From a virus, in the UHGV virus genome UHGV-0124208: a stretch of DNA of 33,408 nucleotides, one strand, 5' to 3'. The translations under genes and the position numbers were made by a program. This document shows, piece by piece, positions 18,468 through 30,140 of this stretch. The notes under the pieces are model-generated. The model saw nothing but the letters and a program-made list of their open reading frames with translations, had not been told where the DNA came from and ran no database searches. The stretch's first letter is position 1; every line of letters begins with the position of its first letter.

Positions 18468-18949
18468 TGATGGTGCTGGGATTGTACGTGTTTATGCTGC
18501 GCACCGTTCCGTATCAGGAACTGCAGTATCAACGCAGCTGGCGACATGCGGCAAACAGCCGGGTAAACCGTCGTCCGTCCACGCAGTTTCTGGGACCGGA
18601 AAACGACATGCTGACGCTTTCCGGTGTTCTTATGCCGGAGATAACAGGCGGCAGGCTGTCGTTGCTGGCACTGGAGCAGATGGCAGAACAGGGGAAAGCA
18701 TGGCCCCTGATTGAAGGCAGCGGCACGATTTACGGCATGTATGTGATTGAGGGACTGAATCAGACTAAAACGGAGTTTTTCCGCGACGGTATGCCGCGCA
18801 GGATTGAGTTCACCCTTTCGCTAAAACGGGTGGATGAATCCCTGTCCGATATGTTCGGTGATCTCAGTACTCAACTGAATAATCTGCAGGACACGGCAAC
18901 GTCTGCCTTAAGCGATATCAGTAAAACGGTGGGAGGGCTGCTGTCGTGA
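18464..18949 (+). CDS. U: Tail protein gpU
   Basis: 161-aa ORF overlapping the T stop; position as P2 U. Confidence 0.85.
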   Translation: MMMVLGLYVFMLRTVPYQELQYQRSWRHAANSRVNRRPSTQFLGPENDMLTLSGVLMPEITGGRLSLLALEQMAEQGKAWPLIEGSGTIYGMYVIEGLNQTKTEFFRDGMPRRIEFTLSLKRVDESLSDMFGDLSTQLNNLQDTATSALSDISKTVGGLLS

Positions 18950-20046
18950 ATTTCAGCTCTGAACTGCTTAACAAAGGCAACAAAACTCCCGCATTCAGCA
19001 TCAGTATTGAGGGGAAGGATATCACCACTGTGCTGGATAACCGCCTGATGAGTCTGACGTTGACGGACAATCGGGGCTTTGAAGCAGACCAGCTTGATCT
19101 GGAGCTGGACGACGCCGACGGAAAAATCGTGCTGCCGCGCCGTGGTGCGGTCATCACGCTGGCGCTGGGCTGGAAGGGGCAGCCGCTTTTCCCGAAAGGG
19201 GCATTCACGGTGGACGAGATTGAACACACTGGCGCACCGGATCGCCTGACTATCCGGGCGCGAAGTGCTGATTTTAGGGAAACGCTGAATACCCGCCGTG
19301 AAAAATCGTGGCATAAGACCACCGTCGGGGAAGTGGTGAAGGAAATAGCCGCGCGGCACAAGCTGAAGATGGCACTGAGTAAAGACCTGTCGGATAAGCC
19401 CGTGGAGCATATAGACCAGACTAATGAGAGTGACGGCAGTTTTCTGATGCGGCTGGCGCGACAGTACGGTGCCATCGCGTCGGTGAAAAATGGCAATCTG
19501 TTATTCATCCGGCAGGGGCAGGGCAAAAGCGCCACTGGTAAACCTCTGCCAGTGATCACTATCACACGCAAGGACGGCGACAGTCACCGATTTACCCTGG
19601 CAGATCGCGGAGCCTACACGGGCGTAATTGCCAGCTGGTTGCATACCCGCGAACCTGCGAAGAAAGAAAGCACCACGGTGAAGCGTAAGCGCAGAACTAA
19701 GAAGCAGAAGAAAGAGCCAGAAGCGAAGCAGGGCGATTACCTGGTGGGTACGGATGAAAACGTGCTGGTACTTAATCGCACTTATGCCAACCGGAGCAAC
19801 GCCGAACGAGCGGCGAAAATGCAGTGGGAACGCCTGCAACGCGGCGTTGCGTCATTTTCTCTACAACTGGCAGAAGGGCGGGCAGATCTCTACACGGAAA
19901 TGCCTGTGAAGGTCAGTGGTTTTAAACAGCCGATAGATGATGCGGAATGGACCATTACGACTCTGACGCATACCGTAAGCCCGGATAATGGTTTTACGAC
20001 CAGTCTGGAGCTTGAAGTGAGGATTGATGATTTCGAAATGGAATGA
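18946..20046 (+). CDS. D: Tail protein gpD
   Basis: 366-aa ORF overlapping the U stop; last gene of the tail operon, as P2 D. Confidence 0.85.
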   Translation: MNFSSELLNKGNKTPAFSISIEGKDITTVLDNRLMSLTLTDNRGFEADQLDLELDDADGKIVLPRRGAVITLALGWKGQPLFPKGAFTVDEIEHTGAPDRLTIRARSADFRETLNTRREKSWHKTTVGEVVKEIAARHKLKMALSKDLSDKPVEHIDQTNESDGSFLMRLARQYGAIASVKNGNLLFIRQGQGKSATGKPLPVITITRKDGDSHRFTLADRGAYTGVIASWLHTREPAKKESTTVKRKRRTKKQKKEPEAKQGDYLVGTDENVLVLNRTYANRSNAERAAKMQWERLQRGVASFSLQLAEGRADLYTEMPVKVSGFKQPIDDAEWTITTLTHTVSPDNGFTTSLELEVRIDDFEME

Positions 20047-20136
20047 TTCTTCGCAATGGAGAACTTTTAAGTTTGCAAAATGGAATAATGCGGTATCATT
20101 ATTGTGAATTTAGCAAAAATGGGGAGAACTCGAAAA

Positions 20137-20355
20137 ATGATGATTTGCCCACTGTGTGGAAGTGCCGCCCATACTCGCAGCAGTTTTCAGGTATCTTCAT
20201 TGACCAAAGAGCGTTACAACCAGTGCCAGAACATTAACTGCAGCCATACTTTTGTTACCCATGAAACTTTTGTTCGTTCGATTGCAACGCCAAAAGAGTC
20301 AAATCCGGTTCAGCCGCATCCAATGAAATCAGGACAGGTAGCGCTCTCTCTTTGA
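20137..20355 (+). CDS. ogr: Ogr/Delta-family zinc-finger late transcription activator
   Basis: From ATG 20137: MMICPLCGSAAHTRSS...KERYNQCQNINCSHTF... (72 aa) with CxxC...CxxxxC spacing like P2 Ogr; the track start at 20104 is a GTG extension. Confidence 0.9.
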   Translation: MMICPLCGSAAHTRSSFQVSSLTKERYNQCQNINCSHTFVTHETFVRSIATPKESNPVQPHPMKSGQVALSL

Positions 20356-20520
20356 CGCTGCCGCCATTTTGTCGCCATCGTTAAAAAACAGTGCTTCTAA
20401 CATCATGATCTTAAACACCATAAATTTCAGGCAACAAAAAACCCATTTATGTAAACGGGTTAATGAAAACAATAAGTTAGAGTAAAAACAATAAGTTGGG
20501 TTGGTGGTCAGTGGTGGTTA
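20356..20520. other. Probable attP region between ogr and int
   Basis: AT-rich non-coding segment in the P2 attP position. It contains a near-palindrome ACCCATTTATGTAAACGGGT (20441-20460) and tandem AAAACAATAAGTT repeats (20466-20478, 20484-20497). It is flanked by a 21-bp direct repeat (20357-20377 and 20540-20560). The core itself is not identified. Confidence 0.5.
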
Positions 20521-21573
20521 TTACGGGGTAATGCCAACCGCTGCCGCCACTTTGTCGCCACTTGGCAGCGTTGCCAGAGGATTGAAACGGAGCGCCGTTT
20601 CCAGATGATCTGGTGCCAGATGTGCGTAACGCATAGTCATTTTTATATCGTGGTGTCCGAGAATTTTTTGTAAGGCGAGAATGTTTCCACCCGACATCAT
20701 GAAGTGCGCCGCAAACGTATGGCGCAGAACGTGTGTGAGTTGACCGCGAGGGAGCACGATAGACGTTTTTTCCATCACGGATAAAAATTGAAAATAGCAG
20801 TCTGTAAAGAAATTGAACCCATCAAGCGCCATGATCTCTTCGTAAAGCTCTTTACTGATAGGGATGCTTCTGTTTTTCTTCCCCTTCGTTCTGACAAAGG
20901 TAATTCGGTATTTGGTCACCTGTGAGCGGGTAAGATTTACGGCTTCACGCCAGCGTGCGCCTGTGCTTAAGCATATCTTAACTACCAGTGCCAGAATTGG
21001 GTCCTGACGTTTGCAATCAGCCAGCAATTCAACAATCTGCTCATGGGTAAGCCATGCCATCTCTTTTTCTGCGATGGTGAATTTTCGCATGTTCTCCAGT
21101 GGGTTCGGATACGACCATTCGCCCAGACGGGATAGTTCGCTAAAAACACTACTTAGATAGCTTTGCTCCAGGTTAATGGTGACCGGGCTTGCTCCTTTCT
21201 TCCATTTCTCGCTGAAGTAGATCTCGCCTGTCAGGCGTTTATCTCGATAGTGGGCAAACATTTTAGAGGTGAGATCGGTTGCAAGAGGATTACCCAGAGC
21301 GTCAACCATCAACAGCAATTTGTCATAGACATGCTGCCCAGCTGTCAGAGATTTACCATGTAGTTTGAACCATAGCTCAACCACGTCTTTCAGTGTTCGA
21401 CGATCCACTGATTCACCCAGCCAGGGCTTTGCTTCGGTTTCTTCTATCGTGTGGCGCTCAAAAGCCAGAGCTTCGCCTTTGGTGGCGAATTGTTTACGCA
21501 CCCGACGCCCACTACGTCCGGCGGGGTAACATTCGCAAAGCCATTTTCCTGTGGTGAGTTTTCGTACTGCCAT
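20521..21573 (-). CDS. int: Tyrosine integrase
   Basis: 350-aa minus-strand ORF; the C-terminus has HVLRHTFAAHF...GHHDIKMTMRYAHL (the R..HxxR..Y tyrosine-recombinase signature); adjacent to attP as in P2. Confidence 0.9.
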   Translation of the reverse strand: MAVRKLTTGKWLCECYPAGRSGRRVRKQFATKGEALAFERHTIEETEAKPWLGESVDRRTLKDVVELWFKLHGKSLTAGQHVYDKLLLMVDALGNPLATDLTSKMFAHYRDKRLTGEIYFSEKWKKGASPVTINLEQSYLSSVFSELSRLGEWSYPNPLENMRKFTIAEKEMAWLTHEQIVELLADCKRQDPILALVVKICLSTGARWREAVNLTRSQVTKYRITFVRTKGKKNRSIPISKELYEEIMALDGFNFFTDCYFQFLSVMEKTSIVLPRGQLTHVLRHTFAAHFMMSGGNILALQKILGHHDIKMTMRYAHLAPDHLETALRFNPLATLPSGDKVAAAVGITP

Positions 21574-21597
21574 AAAAAAGCCCTCATGTCAGAGGGC
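21574..21597 (-). terminator. Intrinsic-terminator-like hairpin plus U6 on the minus-strand transcript, ending immediately 5' of the int start codon
   Basis: Plus strand aaaaaa-GCCCTC-atgtca-GAGGGC; on the int-sense RNA this is GCCCUC-UGACAU-GAGGGC-UUUUUU-AUG. The 3' arm also contains the only SD-like sequence (GAGGG) for int. Confidence 0.55.
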
Positions 21598-21646
21598 TAA
21601 ATTTAACTGTATGTTTGACCAGTGGTCAATGTATGTAAATATTAAA

Positions 21647-23416
21647 TCATACGTCAGGGGTAATCCAGTCGACTAAAGCCTCAATACTTTCGAAATCTGC
21701 ACAGATATCTGAAAGAGGTTGTGTATCTGCTTTTGTTTTGAAATCAGCCCATACTGATTCATTTTTTTCTGTAAGACCCAAATGGTTTTCTATCGAACCA
21801 TTTAGCCAAATCCAAATATTTGCATTTCTCAGTTTTGCGGCTAATGATGACAAAAATTCTCTGGCGCCGGGCTTTTGAGACATAATAGCAAATGCTTCAG
21901 CTGCGGTAGTGTTACTACCCTTTGTAGGCAAACCGGATCCATCGAGAGTGCATTCTCCATTAGCATGCATACTTCTCAAGATTTCTTTTAGTCGTAAAAT
22001 ATCCTCGTCATTATGTTCTAAGAAGTTGTTCCTTATTGCACCGCGGAACGCAAAATCTAAATCAACAATTGCTTTTGTAGGTATATCCATTGAATTTAGA
22101 ATTTGCATCGTTTTAGATATACTTTCAACGGACCCTGTTTCAATTAGTGCTATTTGCATCTGACCTAATGTTTTATTTTTAACTTTGTTAAAAATAAATG
22201 GGAGCAGAGTAGTCTCTGTTTTACCTTCTGTTAGTATTACATTGTTAGCAAACAAAACTTTTGAAGACTGTGTTAATGAAAATAAATGGGTTGCTTGTGC
22301 TGGTCGTTGTTCGATTACTTTATTGACTGCTTCTTTTAATGTTAATCTGCAATGAGTGCCACGCTGACTGTTTTTTCTGATTAACACAGTGTCTTTTGCT
22401 AAGTCAGAGGTAATCATTTGAGATGAATGGGTAGAGAAAATTATTTGATATCCATGATGAGATAGTGTTTTTAGAGATTCTCTAATTTGTTCGATAGCAA
22501 ATGGGTGAAGATATAACTCAGGTTCATCTATTAACAGTAGAGTAGTTGTTTTAATATCATCACCGTTGGTTATATCAGCTAAATGTCTTATTAGAGACAT
22601 CTGAATCGAACGCTGTGTGCCATGACCATAAGAAGAACAGTCACGAGCAATGCCGGGAAATGAATCTTCATATACTTTTACAGTCCCAGATTTAAATATA
22701 TCCTTGAAGTCAGGGAGTTCGAAGTGTAGTTTTAAACTTATCCCAGGGAAGAAATCAGCAAGTTTACTACTTATTGAATCATCAATATCATTGAGGTCCG
22801 ATATTCGTTTATTACCGGTTGCAGTCATTCTTCTATTAACGGCATTTAAATGGCTTAGTATCCTTTGAGTGTGCTTCTCTTCTATTTTGCAACTCAATTC
22901 TGCCAGCAACTTACCTATTGTAGTTCCTGTTTTTGATTTTGAAGAATCATCCGCTGCATTTTCCATTGCACCTATACGTATTGGGTCTGGAAATAAAGCT
23001 TTTATCGCATTCTCAATACCCGTTGGTGATGTCCTGAATTCGTTATTTTCTGGGTTTTTAATTAATAATCTGACGTCTTTTGCACTTTGAGCACCAACAG
23101 TCTGTTGACGCTTAAATATCAATACCCCATCAATAATGTAGGGTGAAATTCTAGTTCTGTTTTCTTCTGTTAAAGCTGACAAAATATCTTCAGTAATACC
23201 CTTAACTGTACCTATAACTTCTATAGGGTTATCTGGATTAGTATAATCATCAGAGGACAAAAGTTTTTTCTTAAAAAGCCATTCAATAGCATTTAAAATC
23301 GTTGACTTACCAGCATTGTTGTAACCGATTAAAGGCGTGAATGAAGAAAAATTGATATCAATATCTTTGCAAGATCTAAAGTTTTTTATAGAAATCTTTG
23401 AAAGATGATGATTCAT
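21647..23416 (-). CDS. old: OLD-family ATP-dependent nuclease (N-terminal ABC-type ATPase + C-terminal Toprim), P2 Old-like, single-gene
   Basis: 589-aa ORF. N-terminal Walker A in ISIKNFRSCK...LIGYNNAGKSTILNAI; central FGHGTQRSIQM and LLIDEPELYLHP (Walker B-like); C-terminal VILTEGKTET...VDLDF Toprim-like acidic motifs. AT-rich relative to flanks. Located between cI and int. Confidence 0.75.
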   Translation of the reverse strand: MNHHLSKISIKNFRSCKDIDINFSSFTPLIGYNNAGKSTILNAIEWLFKKKLLSSDDYTNPDNPIEVIGTVKGITEDILSALTEENRTRISPYIIDGVLIFKRQQTVGAQSAKDVRLLIKNPENNEFRTSPTGIENAIKALFPDPIRIGAMENAADDSSKSKTGTTIGKLLAELSCKIEEKHTQRILSHLNAVNRRMTATGNKRISDLNDIDDSISSKLADFFPGISLKLHFELPDFKDIFKSGTVKVYEDSFPGIARDCSSYGHGTQRSIQMSLIRHLADITNGDDIKTTTLLLIDEPELYLHPFAIEQIRESLKTLSHHGYQIIFSTHSSQMITSDLAKDTVLIRKNSQRGTHCRLTLKEAVNKVIEQRPAQATHLFSLTQSSKVLFANNVILTEGKTETTLLPFIFNKVKNKTLGQMQIALIETGSVESISKTMQILNSMDIPTKAIVDLDFAFRGAIRNNFLEHNDEDILRLKEILRSMHANGECTLDGSGLPTKGSNTTAAEAFAIMSQKPGAREFLSSLAAKLRNANIWIWLNGSIENHLGLTEKNESVWADFKTKADTQPLSDICADFESIEALVDWITPDV

Positions 23417-23459
23417 TTTAGACTCCTCCAGTAAGTATTTAAAAGTAATGTCTGCAATG

Positions 23460-24398
23460 TTATTGTATTGTTAAGATAATGCTGGCTATAATTTGAATAT
23501 CCTCAATGGAACACTCAAAATCCTTACTCCCACCAGAAACAAGAATTTTGTTCTTAGGTAAACGAGTTAACTCTTTTAAAGATAACTCATTGTCAATTCC
23601 TACTAACCATTTTCCATCTCTAATTAGGTGAAATTCTTTATCACATATGACATGTTTTTCTCCATTGCTTACAAACATCAAGCTGCTAGTTTCTTGCTTC
23701 GGAAGTAGACACCGATCCATGGATAAAAAACCTGACTCGACAAGCACGCCATTGACCAAATTGAACTTATTTAAAATTACAGTGTTTTCTTCTTGTGAAC
23801 TATTTGGTGTTTCGATTCCTGTAACTAGCCAGGCGAGATCCGCTTTGGTTTCTAATGCGCATTTAATCACCCAATCCGCAGGGAAAGAATCTCGCATGTA
23901 TCGTGTGGCTAATGTGCTTTTTGAAATACCAAGGTGGTCGGCTAAGGCTTGGCGGGTTTTAAACCCGTAAGCATTAACAATCCTCTCTATCGCGGCTTTT
24001 CCTCCGTTAGTAAGCTCAATGTGATTCTCAATGCGGCGCTTAAAGGATGATTGATGAGCGTTGCTGTTAAACCCCTCATGTGGGACTGTTTCATCATGTT
24101 GTTCCACATAAGGGGGGAAACTTTCTTCTGCATTGTTAGAACCAAAGGCCAGCCATTCTAGGGATGCGCCAGTTTCCATTGAACATATAACAACCCAATC
24201 AGCAGGGAAGGTATCGCGTGCATATCTATTAGCCATTGTGCTTTGTGAAATACCAAGATGCTTACAGAAGGCTTGGCGTGATTTGAAACCATAGGCCTTG
24301 AGTATCCTCTCAATGACTTTTTGCCCTCCACGATTCTGCATGACCATAGCTTTCAGACTATCTTCAATATGGCGAAATGTGATTTTTTGAGTTGACAT
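23460..24398 (-). CDS. cI: Immunity repressor CI, coliphage 186 type, with a tandemly duplicated N-terminal DNA-binding domain
   Basis: 312-aa ORF. Residues about 28-85 (VIERILKAYGFKSRQAFCKHLGISQSTMANRYARDTFPADWVVICSMETGASLEWLAFG) and about 128-185 (AIERIVNAYGFKTRQALADHLGISKSTLATRYMRDSFPADWVIKCALETKADLAWLVTG) are two copies of the 186 CI N-terminal domain motif; about 125-aa C-terminal domain. Divergent from apl-cII. Confidence 0.75.
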   Translation of the reverse strand: MSTQKITFRHIEDSLKAMVMQNRGGQKVIERILKAYGFKSRQAFCKHLGISQSTMANRYARDTFPADWVVICSMETGASLEWLAFGSNNAEESFPPYVEQHDETVPHEGFNSNAHQSSFKRRIENHIELTNGGKAAIERIVNAYGFKTRQALADHLGISKSTLATRYMRDSFPADWVIKCALETKADLAWLVTGIETPNSSQEENTVILNKFNLVNGVLVESGFLSMDRCLLPKQETSSLMFVSNGEKHVICDKEFHLIRDGKWLVGIDNELSLKELTRLPKNKILVSGGSKDFECSIEDIQIIASIILTIQ

Positions 24399-24420
24399 AT
24401 TCTTTATGTGAACCTATTCT
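24392..24420 (+). promoter_or_regulatory. Candidate rightward lytic promoter (pR-like) for apl-cII, overlapping the cI start codon
   Basis: TTGACA (24392-24397), 17-bp spacer, TATTCT (24415-24420); about 65 bp upstream of the apl ATG. Sequence-only call. Confidence 0.4.
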
Positions 24421-24485
24421 CCGTTTTGTGATGTTTTGTCACGATTAATACCGGCTCACCACAAGCCAATAGGAGATGTTGCATC

Positions 24486-24707
24486 ATGACCCCTAACATT
24501 TCAATAACTCTGAATACGCCACACGTCACAATTGAGCGTTATAGCGAACTTACTGGTCTTTCTATCGACACCATCAACGATATGCTGGCTGATGGTCGTA
24601 TCCCTCGCCATCGCCTTCGGAAAGACAAGAAAAGAGAAAAGGTAATGATCAACCTTGCTGCTCTTACCGTTGATGCACTTACTGATTGCAATGTTGTATT
24701 CAACTAG
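24486..24707 (+). CDS. apl: Apl/Cox-like small HTH protein (excisionase / lytic-switch repressor)
   Basis: 73-aa ORF, first gene of the rightward operon opposite cI; contains an HTH-like segment [24 protein letters not shown]. Confidence 0.7.
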
Positions 24708-24739
24708 TTCCATTTTGGGATGCATCAGGAGTGTCGACT

Positions 24740-25249
24740 ATGTTTGATTACCAAGTTTCCAAACATCCACATTTTGATGAAGCCTGTCGTGCATTTGCAC
24801 TGCGCCACAACCTGGTGCAACTGGCAGAACGTGCAGGCATGAATGTACAGATTCTGCGGAACAAGCTGAACCCAGCTCAACCTCATTTATTAACCGCACC
24901 AGAAATCTGGCTGCTTACCGATCTGACTGAAGATTCAACGCTGGTAGATGGTTTTCTGGCACAGATTCATTGTCTGCCATGTGTTCCGATTAATGAGGTA
25001 GCGAAAGAGAAACTGCCGCATTACGTTATGAGTGCAACTGCAGAGATAGGGCGTGTCGCGGCAGGTGCGGTTTCTGGCGATGTAAAAACCAGTGCAGGCC
25101 GTCGTGATGCGATCAGCAGCATTAACTCTGTTACACGACTGATGGCGCTGGCTGCTGTTTCATTGCAGGCCCGTTTACAGGCTAATCCTGCGATGGCGAG
25201 TGCAGTTGATACCGTGACTGGCCTCGGTGCCTCATTCGGTTTGCTGTGA
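24740..25249 (+). CDS. cII: CII-like lysogeny-establishment activator (186 CII family)
   Basis: From ATG 24740 (RBS AGGAG): [45 protein letters not shown]...[25 protein letters not shown]..., which matches 186 CII as I recall it; 169 aa. Confidence 0.8.
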
Positions 25250-25256
25250 GGTGCTT

Positions 25257-25457
25257 ATGCTGACGAAAGAACCATCATTTGCATCGCTGCTGGTAAAACA
25301 AAGCCCGGCAATGCACTACGGTCACGGCTGGATCATGGGGGAGGATGGTAAACGCTGGCATCCGTGCCGTTCACAAGATGAATTGCTGGCAGAACTATCT
25401 ACGAAAAAACGGGGGAACAAATGGCTATTGAAGGCGCTGCGGCGACTGTTCCATTAA
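25257..25457 (+). CDS. Small early protein, function unknown (occupies the position of fil in 186)
   Basis: 66-aa ORF from ATG 25257 (MLTKEPSFASLLVKQ...); the assignment is positional only. Confidence 0.5.
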   Translation: MLTKEPSFASLLVKQSPAMHYGHGWIMGEDGKRWHPCRSQDELLAELSTKKRGNKWLLKALRRLFH

Positions 25458-25762
25458 GCCCCGGTGAACGCCTGAATGGACTTAACCATATTGCGGAGTT
25501 AAGGGCGAAAGTATTTGGCCTGAATATTGAGTCAGAGCTTGAGCGGTTTATTAAAGATATGCGTGATCCACGGGATATCAATAACGAACAAAATAAACGG
25601 GCACTGGCTGCTATATTCTTTATGGCAAAAATTCCAGCTGAACGTCATAGCATCAGCATTAATGAGCTGACCACTGACGAAAAGCGGGAGTTGATTAAAG
25701 CAATGAATCATTTTCGTGCAGTGGTGAGCTTATTTCCCAGACGGCTAACCATGCCGAATTAA
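25421..25762 (+). CDS. Hypothetical early protein
   Basis: 113-aa ORF with RBS GGGGGAACAA before ATG 25421; no family recognised. Confidence 0.5.
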   Translation: MAIEGAAATVPLSPGERLNGLNHIAELRAKVFGLNIESELERFIKDMRDPRDINNEQNKRALAAIFFMAKIPAERHSISINELTTDEKRELIKAMNHFRAVVSLFPRRLTMPN

Positions 25763-29555: not shown

Positions 29556-29649
29556 TTACGCGGGTTAACAATTCGTGCTCTTAATAATACCAGGCATATC
29601 AGGCCGATGAACGTAAAAAAACGTTTTACATCAGTAAGATTATTATATA

Positions 29650-29665
29650 CTGTAAATATAAACAG
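29650..29665. promoter_or_regulatory. LexA operator (SOS box) upstream of the DinI/Tum-like operon
   Basis: CTGTAAATATAAACAG = CTGT-N8-ACAG with an AT-rich centre, flanked TA...TG (consensus TACTGTATATATATACAGTA); 43 bp upstream of ATG 29708; a -35-like TTTACA at 29625-29630. Confidence 0.75.
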
Positions 29666-29707
29666 TGGTTATGTATACAGTATTGTTTTGGTGTCATAGG
29701 AGGAAAG

Positions 29708-29896
29708 ATGCAGGACTATTTTTTGGAGTCTTTGAAGCTCCAGCGCATTGATTTTTTTCTTAAGCTTGTAGCGGCTAGTGAGTGTAGTGATGAAGAGAAG
29801 GGGCTGGCTCTGCAGTGGGTTTCTGAATTGACTGATGAACTCATGGCAAAAATCAGAAGCCACGAATACAACCGCTCAATGGATGTCATCAGCTGA
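29708..29896 (+). CDS. Small SOS-regulated protein, first gene of the Tum-like module (function unknown; candidate antirepressor component)
   Basis: 62-aa ORF with RBS AGGAGG, directly downstream of the LexA box. Confidence 0.55.
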   Translation: MQDYFLESLKLQRIDFFLKLVAASECSDEEKGLALQWVSELTDELMAKIRSHEYNRSMDVIS

Positions 29897-29906
29897 GGTG
29901 ACTTTT

Positions 29907-30140
29907 ATGCGCATTGAAATAATGATCGATAAAGAGCAGAAGATTAGCCAGTCTACCCTGGACGCACTTGAATCCGAGCTTTACCGCAATCTGCGCCCCC
30001 TGTATCCCAAAACGGTAATTCGCATTCGCAAAGGTAGCTCTAACGGTGTGGAACTAACCGGACTGCAACTGGATGAAGAAAGAAAACAAGTGATGAAAAT
30101 TATGCAGAAGGTGTGGGAGGACGACAGCTGGCTGCATTAA
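29907..30140 (+). CDS. DinI-family protein (Tum C-terminal-domain-like)
   Basis: From ATG 29907: MRIEIMIDKEQKISQSTLDALESELYRNLRPLYPKTVIRIRKGSSNGVELTGLQLDEERKQVMKIMQKVWEDDSWLH, which aligns by eye with E. coli DinI (MRIEVTIAK...; ...ILQETWESADDW). Confidence 0.75.
   Translation: MRIEIMIDKEQKISQSTLDALESELYRNLRPLYPKTVIRIRKGSSNGVELTGLQLDEERKQVMKIMQKVWEDDSWLH

Follow-up and report, generated by a model that had tools for sequence, protein, structure and literature searches.

Organization of the int locus

The window analysed here is the whole 33,408-nucleotide (nt) stretch of the viral genome UHGV-0124208, i.e., the genome of a P2/186-like (Peduoviridae) phage with its genes in vegetative order. 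The element under study is a terminator-like hairpin localized immediately before int, the integrase gene, on the minus strand. It sits in the 73-nt gap between the stop codon of an old homologue and the start codon of int, in the following context:

20521-21573, minus strand: int, tyrosine integrase of 350 amino acids (aa) (Pfam Int_N 3e-32, Phage_integrase 7e-22; 77 homologous loci)
21573-21571, minus strand: int start codon ATG, read from the sequence
21647-23416, minus strand: old homologue, 589-aa OLD-family ATPase/TOPRIM nuclease, cargo upstream of int (PADLOC Old 6e-234; Pfam AAA_15 and OLD-like_TOPRIM)
23460-24398, minus strand: cI repressor, 312 aa, two helix-turn-helix domains (Pfam Phage_CI_repr in two stretches, 1.5e-58, and Phage_CI_C)

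The repressor gene cI comes first in the leftward lysogenic transcription unit. The int start codon is correct, since MAVRKL... aligns with the beginnings of the homologous integrases of the 77 loci.

The hairpin, its U-tract and the Shine-Dalgarno sequence

The minus strand reads TTAAAT-TT-AGCCCTC-TGACAT-GAGGGCT-TTTTT-ATG-GCA up to the second codon of int, and the following features are recognized:

21579-21598, minus strand: hairpin, with 5' arm AGCCCTC (21598-21592), loop TGACAT (21591-21586) and 3' arm GAGGGCT (21585-21579)
21574-21579, minus strand: T6 run (U-tract of the RNA), directly 3' of the stem and abutting the int ATG
21581-21585, minus strand: Shine-Dalgarno (SD)-like GAGGG, 7 nt before the int ATG and entirely inside the 3' arm

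The interval 21574-21597, to which an earlier note on this DNA had drawn attention, is exactly GCCCTCTGACATGAGGGCTTTTTT. The stem has 7 bp (5 G-C) when the closing A-U pair is counted (21598-21592 with 21585-21579) and the loop has 6 nt; the first T of the T6 run is the partner of this closing pair, so that five T remain unpaired. The earlier note had described a terminator-like hairpin whose U-tract runs into the int start codon and whose 3' arm holds the only SD-like element. Both descriptions agree with the sequence: GAGGG (21585-21581) is the sole SD-like element within 20 nt of the ATG, and the 30-nt hairpin segment folds as RNA at −13.3 kcal/mol (z = −3.94), only 1 of 200 dinucleotide shuffles being as stable. 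The hairpin also forms when it is folded in a 121-nt context.

Among the terminator-like sites of the region 19500-25500 the hairpin ranks first. This class of pattern is only about two-fold enriched there (12 found vs. 5.7 expected), thus the scan alone is weak evidence for the hairpin. The G+C-rich stem (usual range about 5-14 bp), the loop within 3-8 nt and the U-tract directly 3' of the stem are those of an intrinsic terminator. The hairpin lies 49 nt past the old stop codon on the int-sense strand, and the terminator scan gave no second minus-strand terminator-like site between cI and int.

These features are also what would be expected if the hairpin were simply the intrinsic terminator of the cI-old (cargo) unit, standing beside int by chance and overlapping the SD without function; morons, as is generally known, often carry their own terminator. 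The distribution of the hairpin among relatives, described below, makes this explanation distinctly unlikely.

Two other assignments were considered and rejected. (i) A search of 21300-21900 against the RNA families of Rfam identified no known family and gave sub-threshold matches only (RyhB, 26 bits vs. 55; Trp_leader, 19 vs. 41); they extend from near the −35 (see below) to the int ATG and are probably driven by the terminator-like hairpin and the U-run. (ii) A sib-like RNase III site was discarded: the 7-bp stem is too short and is located upstream rather than downstream of int.

Conservation of the pairing among relatives

A scan with one genome per species gave 77 int loci (48-99% protein identity), about 45 of which have the same upstream cassette. 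They are found in Escherichia, Klebsiella, Raoultella, Citrobacter, Enterobacter, Kluyvera, Serratia, Yersinia, Rahnella, Pantoea, Brenneria, Mixta and others, and among 5426 complete E. coli genomes 1110 have a match to the int leader, strain CFSAN064036 being 100% identical to it over the query. The folding test was made on the segment going from the conserved −10 hexamer to the int ATG, for 34 distinct sequences. In 32 of these 34 relatives a hairpin is present at the same position; scored against shuffles, the 32 have a mean folding energy (dG) of −11.0 kcal/mol and a mean z of −5.0, with z < −2 in 30 of them. The control, i.e., the corresponding 27 nt in front of int genes that have no cassette, gives −1.5 kcal/mol and z = −0.09. 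This conservation is the strongest evidence that the hairpin is not due to chance. The hairpin is thus real and structurally conserved.

On the contrary, the stem sequence is variable. About 12 unrelated stem types occur, pairing being kept across the lineages: AGCCCTC/GAGGGCT, GCTCTCC/GGAGGGC, ACCCCT/AGGGGT, CTCCTAA/TTAGGAG, TAGCCC/GGGCTA and CCCCCTT/AAGGGGG, as well as CACATTCTC/GAGAATGTG, CCTCCATT/AATGGAGG and ACAGTCCTC/GGGGGCTGT. In every hairpin-bearing lineage the SD, rich in purines, is on the 3' side of the stem, and the 5' arm holds a pyrimidine run that resembles an anti-SD.

When the leaders are aligned with MAFFT by sequence alone, the hairpin registers are lost between lineages; a covariance-model realignment was used for the fixed-register count. 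Pairing is then found in 74% of the cells vs. 67% in shuffles (0 of 500 reach this value), and the covariation score is 0.30 vs. 0.22 in shuffles (2 of 500), which beats all slid registers. This covariation is just moderate and weaker than the result of the per-sequence folding, because registers vary by lineage; the main reliance is thus placed on per-sequence folding against shuffles.

A variable sequence with a conserved pairing points to a nucleic-acid structure rather than to a protein-binding site. The inverted repeat might nevertheless be a DNA-level protein site, or a chance palindrome, with no RNA function: the region is dense in protein-binding motifs and in the window the stem is nearly equally stable on both strands (−13.3 vs. 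−13.2 kcal/mol). Since it is the pairing and not the sequence that is kept across lineages, and since so few shuffles fold as well, this is very improbable.

The hairpin belongs to the int module

BLAST against phages gave relatives with the same int and another upstream gene, or with cI directly upstream. In all cases the homology sets in again about 65-80 nt ahead of the int ATG, whatever gene lies upstream. The genes preceding the cassette encode Old, PD-Lambda-1, a KAP NTPase (PDC-S20), AbiU, a HEPN protein and unknown proteins, or are cI itself or ogr; the same hairpin is thus found before int behind at least 10 different cargo genes, and behind ogr where int is inverted. At the latter loci (14 in number) int is downstream of gpD-ogr, usually past a separate terminator. 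The corresponding genes of the window are:

18946-20046, plus strand: gpD
20104-20355, plus strand: ogr

The cargo boundary is upstream of the CII-like palindrome described below. By these comparisons the hairpin moves with int and is not a part of old. This, together with the many lineages that keep the SD hairpin without a U-tract and with an SD always placed in the 3' arm, is what speaks against a mere terminator of the cargo unit.

A run of at least 4 T follows the stem in 23 of the 45 cassette loci, all 23 in the cI-cargo-int context, and is absent from the other 22; it is confined to the lineage group of the window. The lineages of Rahnella, Pantoea, Mixta, Serratia and Yersinia, as well as phages ev040 and ev129, lack the U-tract and keep the SD-pairing hairpin. 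As judged from sequence comparison, termination is not the conserved feature of the hairpin. The earlier note had stated that transcripts coming from cI-old would mostly terminate here; in the window they should indeed tend to stop, the site being terminator-like and the sole one between cI and int.

Separate terminators were searched over about 130 nt upstream of the cassette. Among the loci with a T-run, 21 of 23 have no other terminator-like hairpin upstream of the cassette, and 13 of the 22 loci without T-run have a separate canonical terminator there, e.g., AGCCCGCTCAGCGGGCT-TTTTT. This split suggests that insulation from upstream transcription is required: it seems to be either built into the SD hairpin, which is the case in the window, or provided by a separate element.

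The 186-type loci, in which the cI stop touches the int ATG, are without the cassette. The C-int spacer of P2 (locus L085, 1477-1591) has 115 nt and another hairpin, GGTGGCT-AAATTTC-AGCCACC, followed by an A-rich and not a U-rich stretch; it is devoid of U-tract and of LexA-like box, and its GGAGG SD is apparently unpaired. The family thus has three designs of the cI/C-int junction, i.e., those of 186, of P2 and of the cassette.

A candidate promoter nested in the hairpin

The conserved cassette has the following order: CII-operator-like palindrome, −35, LexA-like box, −10, hairpin with SD, int ATG. Besides the hairpin, its elements in the window are:

21629-21654, palindromic (no strand): ACGTATG-N12-CATACAT, which fits the 186 CII operator pattern; its distal half shares sequence with the old stop codon and its proximal half is contiguous with the −35
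21624-21629, minus strand: −35-like TTGACC, agreeing with the consensus at 5 of 6 positions and separated from the downstream TTAAAT by 17 nt
21605-21624, minus strand: LexA (SOS) box-like 20-mer CACTGGTCAAACATACAGTT, CTG-N10-CAG, spanning the promoter spacer
21601-21606, minus strand: −10-like TTAAAT, which follows the CAG of the LexA-like box without a gap and is separated from the stem by 2 nt
21591-21595, minus strand: predicted int start zone, 6-10 nt past the −10, within the 5' arm and the loop

The conservation of the promoter region was evaluated on 41 distinct sequences anchored on it. The −35 lies in an almost invariant ACATTGAC (CATTGA being invariant in alignment A1), and the relatives have TTGAC(A/C), TTTACA or TTGAAT at that position; the −10 position is conserved as T-(A/T)-A-A-A-T. 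The spacer between the two is 16-17 nt across the relatives. A promoter scan flags TTGACC-18-TAAATT in the window. In all lineages the −10 ends 0-4 nt before the stem.

In E. coli, transcription usually starts 6-10 nt after the −10. The promoter interval annotated for 186 pE ends 8 nt after its −10, i.e., with the same geometry as the start zone given above. The −10 geometry and the pE analogy thus place the start at about 21591-21595, within the 5' arm or the loop. Moreover, int in the 14 gpD-ogr loci, usually behind a separate terminator, needs a promoter of its own. It is thus most likely that int is served by a regulated promoter of its own, which is nested in the hairpin. The earlier note had assumed that int is expressed only by read-through from cI-old; it had overlooked this promoter-like cassette.

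If transcription began upstream of the stem, the hairpin would be a part of the int mRNA and could act as a constitutive or regulated translational attenuator (e.g., as a thermosensor or by being targeted by a factor). A reading of this kind is in essence that of the earlier note, with or without a dedicated promoter. In RNA with both arms the SD is strongly sequestered (mean of 11 kcal/mol to open it), low integrase levels are typical, and the purines nearest to the −10 (A21598 and G21597) would lead to transcription of the whole hairpin if initiation were unusually close. On the other hand, with a stem 0-4 nt past the −10 in all lineages, initiation 6-10 nt downstream falls in the 5' arm or loop; where a U-tract is present the hairpin would end the promoter's own transcript after about 25 nt; and where int follows ogr and a separate terminator there is no evident upstream source of int mRNA. 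An attenuator within the int mRNA is thus rather unlikely.

It should be noted that the −35 and the left half of the LexA-like box together make up a perfect 7-1-7 palindrome, TTGACCA-C-TGGTCAA (21615-21629, minus strand). Folding is predicted for it in the read-through RNA. It is only partly kept in relatives and is thus probably incidental.

The LexA-like box

The LexA-like box shares the final base of the −35 and the two initial bases of the −10. Of the 47 loci having the conserved −35/hairpin sequence, 45 contain CTG-N10-CAG, and in the 41 distinct sequences ACTG and ATACAGT are near-invariant, including positions that lie beyond the search pattern. The boxes of the family match the E. coli LexA consensus TACTG(TA)5CAGTA at 13-18 of 20 positions, several relatives being near-consensus (e.g., TACTGTTTTTTTATACAGTA and CACTGTTTATATATACAGTA). 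The heterology index, which is approximate, its matrix having been assembled from operators of the literature, is 0.7-8.6 for known sites, 1.0 for the 186 p95 box, 1.5-7 for the relatives and 8.8 for the window box. The latter is thus at the edge of the known range, whereas the relatives clearly conform to the LexA palindrome.

In the 33-kb window this box is the third-best LexA-like 20-mer. The first two serve as an internal comparator:

29648-29682, plus strand: a pair of overlapping LexA-like boxes preceding a tum-like operon, located where 186 has p95-tum

Their presence at the tum-like operon indicates that the phage has a 186-type SOS module. The operon itself is apparently split into a 62-aa open reading frame (ORF; phrog_698) and an overlapping 101-aa DinI-like ORF (29708-29896 and 29835-30140, respectively). 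The DinI-like ORF has 41% identity to residues 71-145 of 186 Tum, which is a single 146-aa product.

The two loci that have lost the box (L019 and L072) keep the hairpin, the T-run and int; the loss is due to a point change to GTG in one and to a deletion in the other. They may be decaying prophages or natural LexA-independent variants.

The CII-operator-like palindrome

The CII operator sequence was taken from the GenBank annotation of 186 (NC_001317), where CII binding is annotated at 23435-23462 as ATGTTTG-N13-CAAACAT at the cII start codon, the −10 of pE (TAAAGT) being 21 nt past the proximal half-site. Scanning the window with ATGTWTG-N12-14-CAWACAT and at most 1 mismatch gave 3 hits vs. 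0.07 expected, i.e., the palindrome of the int cassette and the following:

24740-24766, palindromic (no strand): perfect ATGTTTG-N13-CAAACAT at the cII start codon (pE equivalent), positional homologue of the annotated 186 site
23652-23678, palindromic (no strand): ATGTTTT-N13-CAAACAT, 1 mismatch, inside the cI coding region

A CII-like site ending 53-60 nt before the int ATG is found in 33 cassette loci, the window included, and perfect copies of the pattern occur in several relatives (L004, L006, L034, L040, L048 and L063); the 186-type loci have a CII-like site only at the cII start. In the window 22 nt separate the operator from the int −10; the relatives have 21-22 nt at this place, and pE has 21 nt.

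The possibility that ATGTAT...ATACAT is a second RNA hairpin was rejected, as it folds no better than shuffles (mean z of −1.0). The hairpin reading was dropped because the spacing of the half-sites is near fixed (N12-N13) and because they match the 186 CII operator.

The palindrome inside cI has no −10 at a pE-like distance on either strand, and no counterpart of it was detected in L003 and L021, which have the same form of cI. It may be a chance or a lineage-specific site.

In the Rahnella-type prophages with int after gpD-ogr (L030, L032, L033, L036, L037 and L041), a palindrome ATGTATG-N13-CATACAA is located upstream of ogr; in L036 it lies at 2097-2123 and ends about 40 nt before the ogr start. 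Its sequence hints at a further CII-like, or related, control of the late activator gene.

Energetics and proposed mechanism

RNAs starting at 21595, 21594 and 21593 fold at −5.8, −2.5 and −2.0 kcal/mol, respectively, vs. −13.3 kcal/mol for the full hairpin. For the 34 distinct cassettes, the mean cost of opening the SD window is 11.0 kcal/mol in the read-through RNA vs. 2.7-4.8 kcal/mol in RNAs starting 6-8 nt after the −10. In the window the corresponding values are 12.9 kcal/mol (read-through) and 4.2-8.1 kcal/mol (promoter-initiated). The prediction of the earlier note that the ribosome-binding site is occluded in read-through RNA is thus supported by folding; its mechanism as a whole, termination included, is plausible and has comparative support, although it is incomplete. 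Its suggestion of a tight limitation of Int can be kept for read-through RNA and not as a general rule, given the conserved promoter-like cassette upstream, whose −10 ends 2 nt before the stem.

The hairpin would be the downstream end of a compact int expression cassette travelling with int and, most simply read, would sort transcripts by their origin. The promoter-initiated int RNA would begin inside the 5' arm and hence lack the anti-SD arm: it would form no hairpin, would not terminate and would have a free SD. On the contrary, read-through RNA (which comes from cI-old in the window and, in other lineages, from ogr or late genes) would carry both arms. In the lineage group of the window, such RNA would meet an intrinsic terminator before the ATG, and the transcripts that escape it would have their SD sequestered. 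In this manner the hairpin would separate the production of Int from the lysogenic and defence genes, whose transcription is constitutive, and tie it to the int promoter. Repression of that promoter by LexA would provide Int for excision during SOS, alongside the LexA-controlled tum-like antirepressor; its activation by CII would provide Int for integration, as at lambda pI.

What is established are the features of the sequence, with their conservation, geometry and folding energies; the activity of the promoter, its start site, the binding of LexA and CII, and termination in vivo are all deduced. On this basis, an insulator that is bypassed by a nested int promoter is considered to be a fairly probable function of the hairpin. 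The wider proposal, i.e., that a 186-like lineage has replaced the cI-int co-transcription by a LexA- and CII-integrating int promoter nested in a terminator/anti-SD hairpin, is more tentative and is put at slightly less than an even chance.

Several points weigh against these proposals. As regards the hairpin and the start site: (i) the start site is derived solely from the −10 geometry and the pE analogy, and the window positions 6-10 nt after the −10 are all pyrimidines, which are poor initiating nucleotides; (ii) the cassette loci L029 and L048 have no hairpin; (iii) G-U pairs show no significant int-sense bias (20 hairpins sense and 12 antisense; Wilcoxon p = 0.12); (iv) related loci share ancestry, so that the counts overstate the number of independent events. 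As regards the regulators: (v) the LexA-like box of the window is the weakest of the family, with CTGG-N8-ACAG for an expected CTGT-N8-ACAG with an A+T-rich centre, i.e., a CTGG left half, G+C in the spacer, 13 of 20 positions and the approximate index of 8.8, and LexA control in the window phage is thus uncertain; (vi) a bound LexA is expected to block the CII-driven expression of int in an ordinary infection; (vii) compared with a pE-type operator, i.e., inverted 7-mers two helical turns apart, the CII-like site of int has 1 mismatch, an A and not a T at the W position, and a spacing of N12, not of N13; (viii) a pE-type promoter has a weak −35 and the int promoter, unlike pE, has a good one at 17-nt spacing, so that dependence on CII is not implied.

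Comparison with known systems

The closest logic is that of insertion sequences. Davis, Simons and Kleckner (1985, Cell 43:379) reportedly described the protection of IS10/Tn10 (and IS50) from external promoters, or «fold-back inhibition». The translation signals of IS10 are sequestered in secondary structure (PMC13181058). As in IS10/IS50, the recombinase gene of a mobile element is shielded and its initiation region pairs with a sequence located upstream of its own start; only transcripts of foreign origin fold, while the own promoter gives an open mRNA, and the same would apply to the window. The differences from IS10 are that the gene is that of a phage tyrosine integrase, that the U-tract makes the hairpin double as an intrinsic terminator in the lineage group of the window, that the nested promoter (with its predicted start) has LexA-like and CII-like sites, and that no antisense RNA is evident.

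In lambda, int is governed by the CII-activated pI promoter and by sib retro-regulation. The earlier note had compared the hairpin with this retro-regulation. The comparison is apt for the outcome, since Int would depend on the promoter of origin and transcripts from another operon would be made unproductive by RNA structure; it fails for the mechanism, which in the window would act at the 5' end. The sib element is a long RNase III hairpin located 3' of int and leading to 3' decay, whereas the hairpin of the window has 7 bp, is upstream of int and would act by termination and SD occlusion. CII activity at lambda pI is mentioned in PMC7708051. The 186-type CII is unrelated to lambda CII.

Phage 186 is described with a single CII-activated promoter and its Int is taken to come from the cI operon (PMC7708051). 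The sites of the int cassette resemble those of 186 pE and p95 (NC_001317), i.e., ATGTTTG-N13-CAAACAT 21 nt before the −10 and TACTG-N10-CAGTA over the promoter core. Like 186, the window phage also has the canonical CII site at the cII start and LexA-like boxes at the tum-like promoter. The two differ at int, which in 186 has no promoter of its own, the cI stop overlapping the int ATG, whereas both motifs precede int in the window.

LexA-controlled promoters were reportedly described for the integron integrase gene intI (Guerin et al. 2009, Science). As in intI, a tyrosine recombinase gene has a LexA box, or here a LexA-like one, over its promoter, and in intI this couples recombination to SOS. 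Unlike intI, the window integrase belongs to another recombinase family and another biology, and neither a nested terminator/anti-SD hairpin nor a CII input is described there.

With its G+C-rich stem of 7 bp, its loop of 6 nt and the six U that come right after, all past a stop codon, the hairpin is like a canonical Rho-independent terminator. It differs from it by a U-tract that enters a start codon, a 3' arm that is the SD of the next gene and a −10 that ends 2 nt before the stem.

In the literature, of which the coverage was incomplete, no description was found of this cassette, of the hairpin or of a LexA/CII site at a P2/186-like int promoter. The elements thus appear to belong to known kinds, while their combination is one for which the P2/186 family offers no described precedent. 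If the proposal is correct: (i) the int promoter would be the second CII-activated and the second LexA-controlled promoter of the 186 family; (ii) it would be a 5'-end counterpart of lambda pI/sib, allowing defence genes to be inserted between cI and int while recombination stays regulated; (iii) the presence of highly expressed Old, PD-Lambda-1, AbiU, etc. in the cI-int slot without constitutive Int would be explained; (iv) common natural relatives of the 186/P2 model switch would control their integrase quite differently; (v) SOS-dependent excision competence would be predicted for prophages found in about one fifth of E. coli genomes; (vi) the cassette would be a compact natural «insulated promoter» part.

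Other features of the region

The cI-int gap is a defence-gene hotspot, as judged from the gene content of this slot in relatives (PD-Lambda-1, KAP NTPase, AbiU, HEPN protein and unknowns). Such a cI-int hotspot was reported for Vibrio K139-like relatives of P2 (PMC9122126), and for P2-like prophages a hotspot «between integrase and primase» (PMC13586616); neither PMC9122126 nor PMC13586616 mentions LexA or a terminator at the cI-int locus. In the window, the slot holds a full-length homologue of P2 Old, which is thus not at the position of old in P2.

The cI repressor of the window has two tandem Phage_CI_repr helix-turn-helix domains followed by the CI C-terminal domain. In most relatives cI has about 190-200 aa and one domain; the duplicated form is common to L003 (4LV2017) and L021. 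On the other side of cI, the plus strand carries:

24486-24707, plus strand: cox/apl, followed by a 186-type cII, also on the plus strand

A further terminator-like hairpin, AACCCGTTTACATAAATGGGTT with a T-run (20440-20461, minus strand), is located just 3' of int, in the presumed attP region, and is probably the end of the int transcript.

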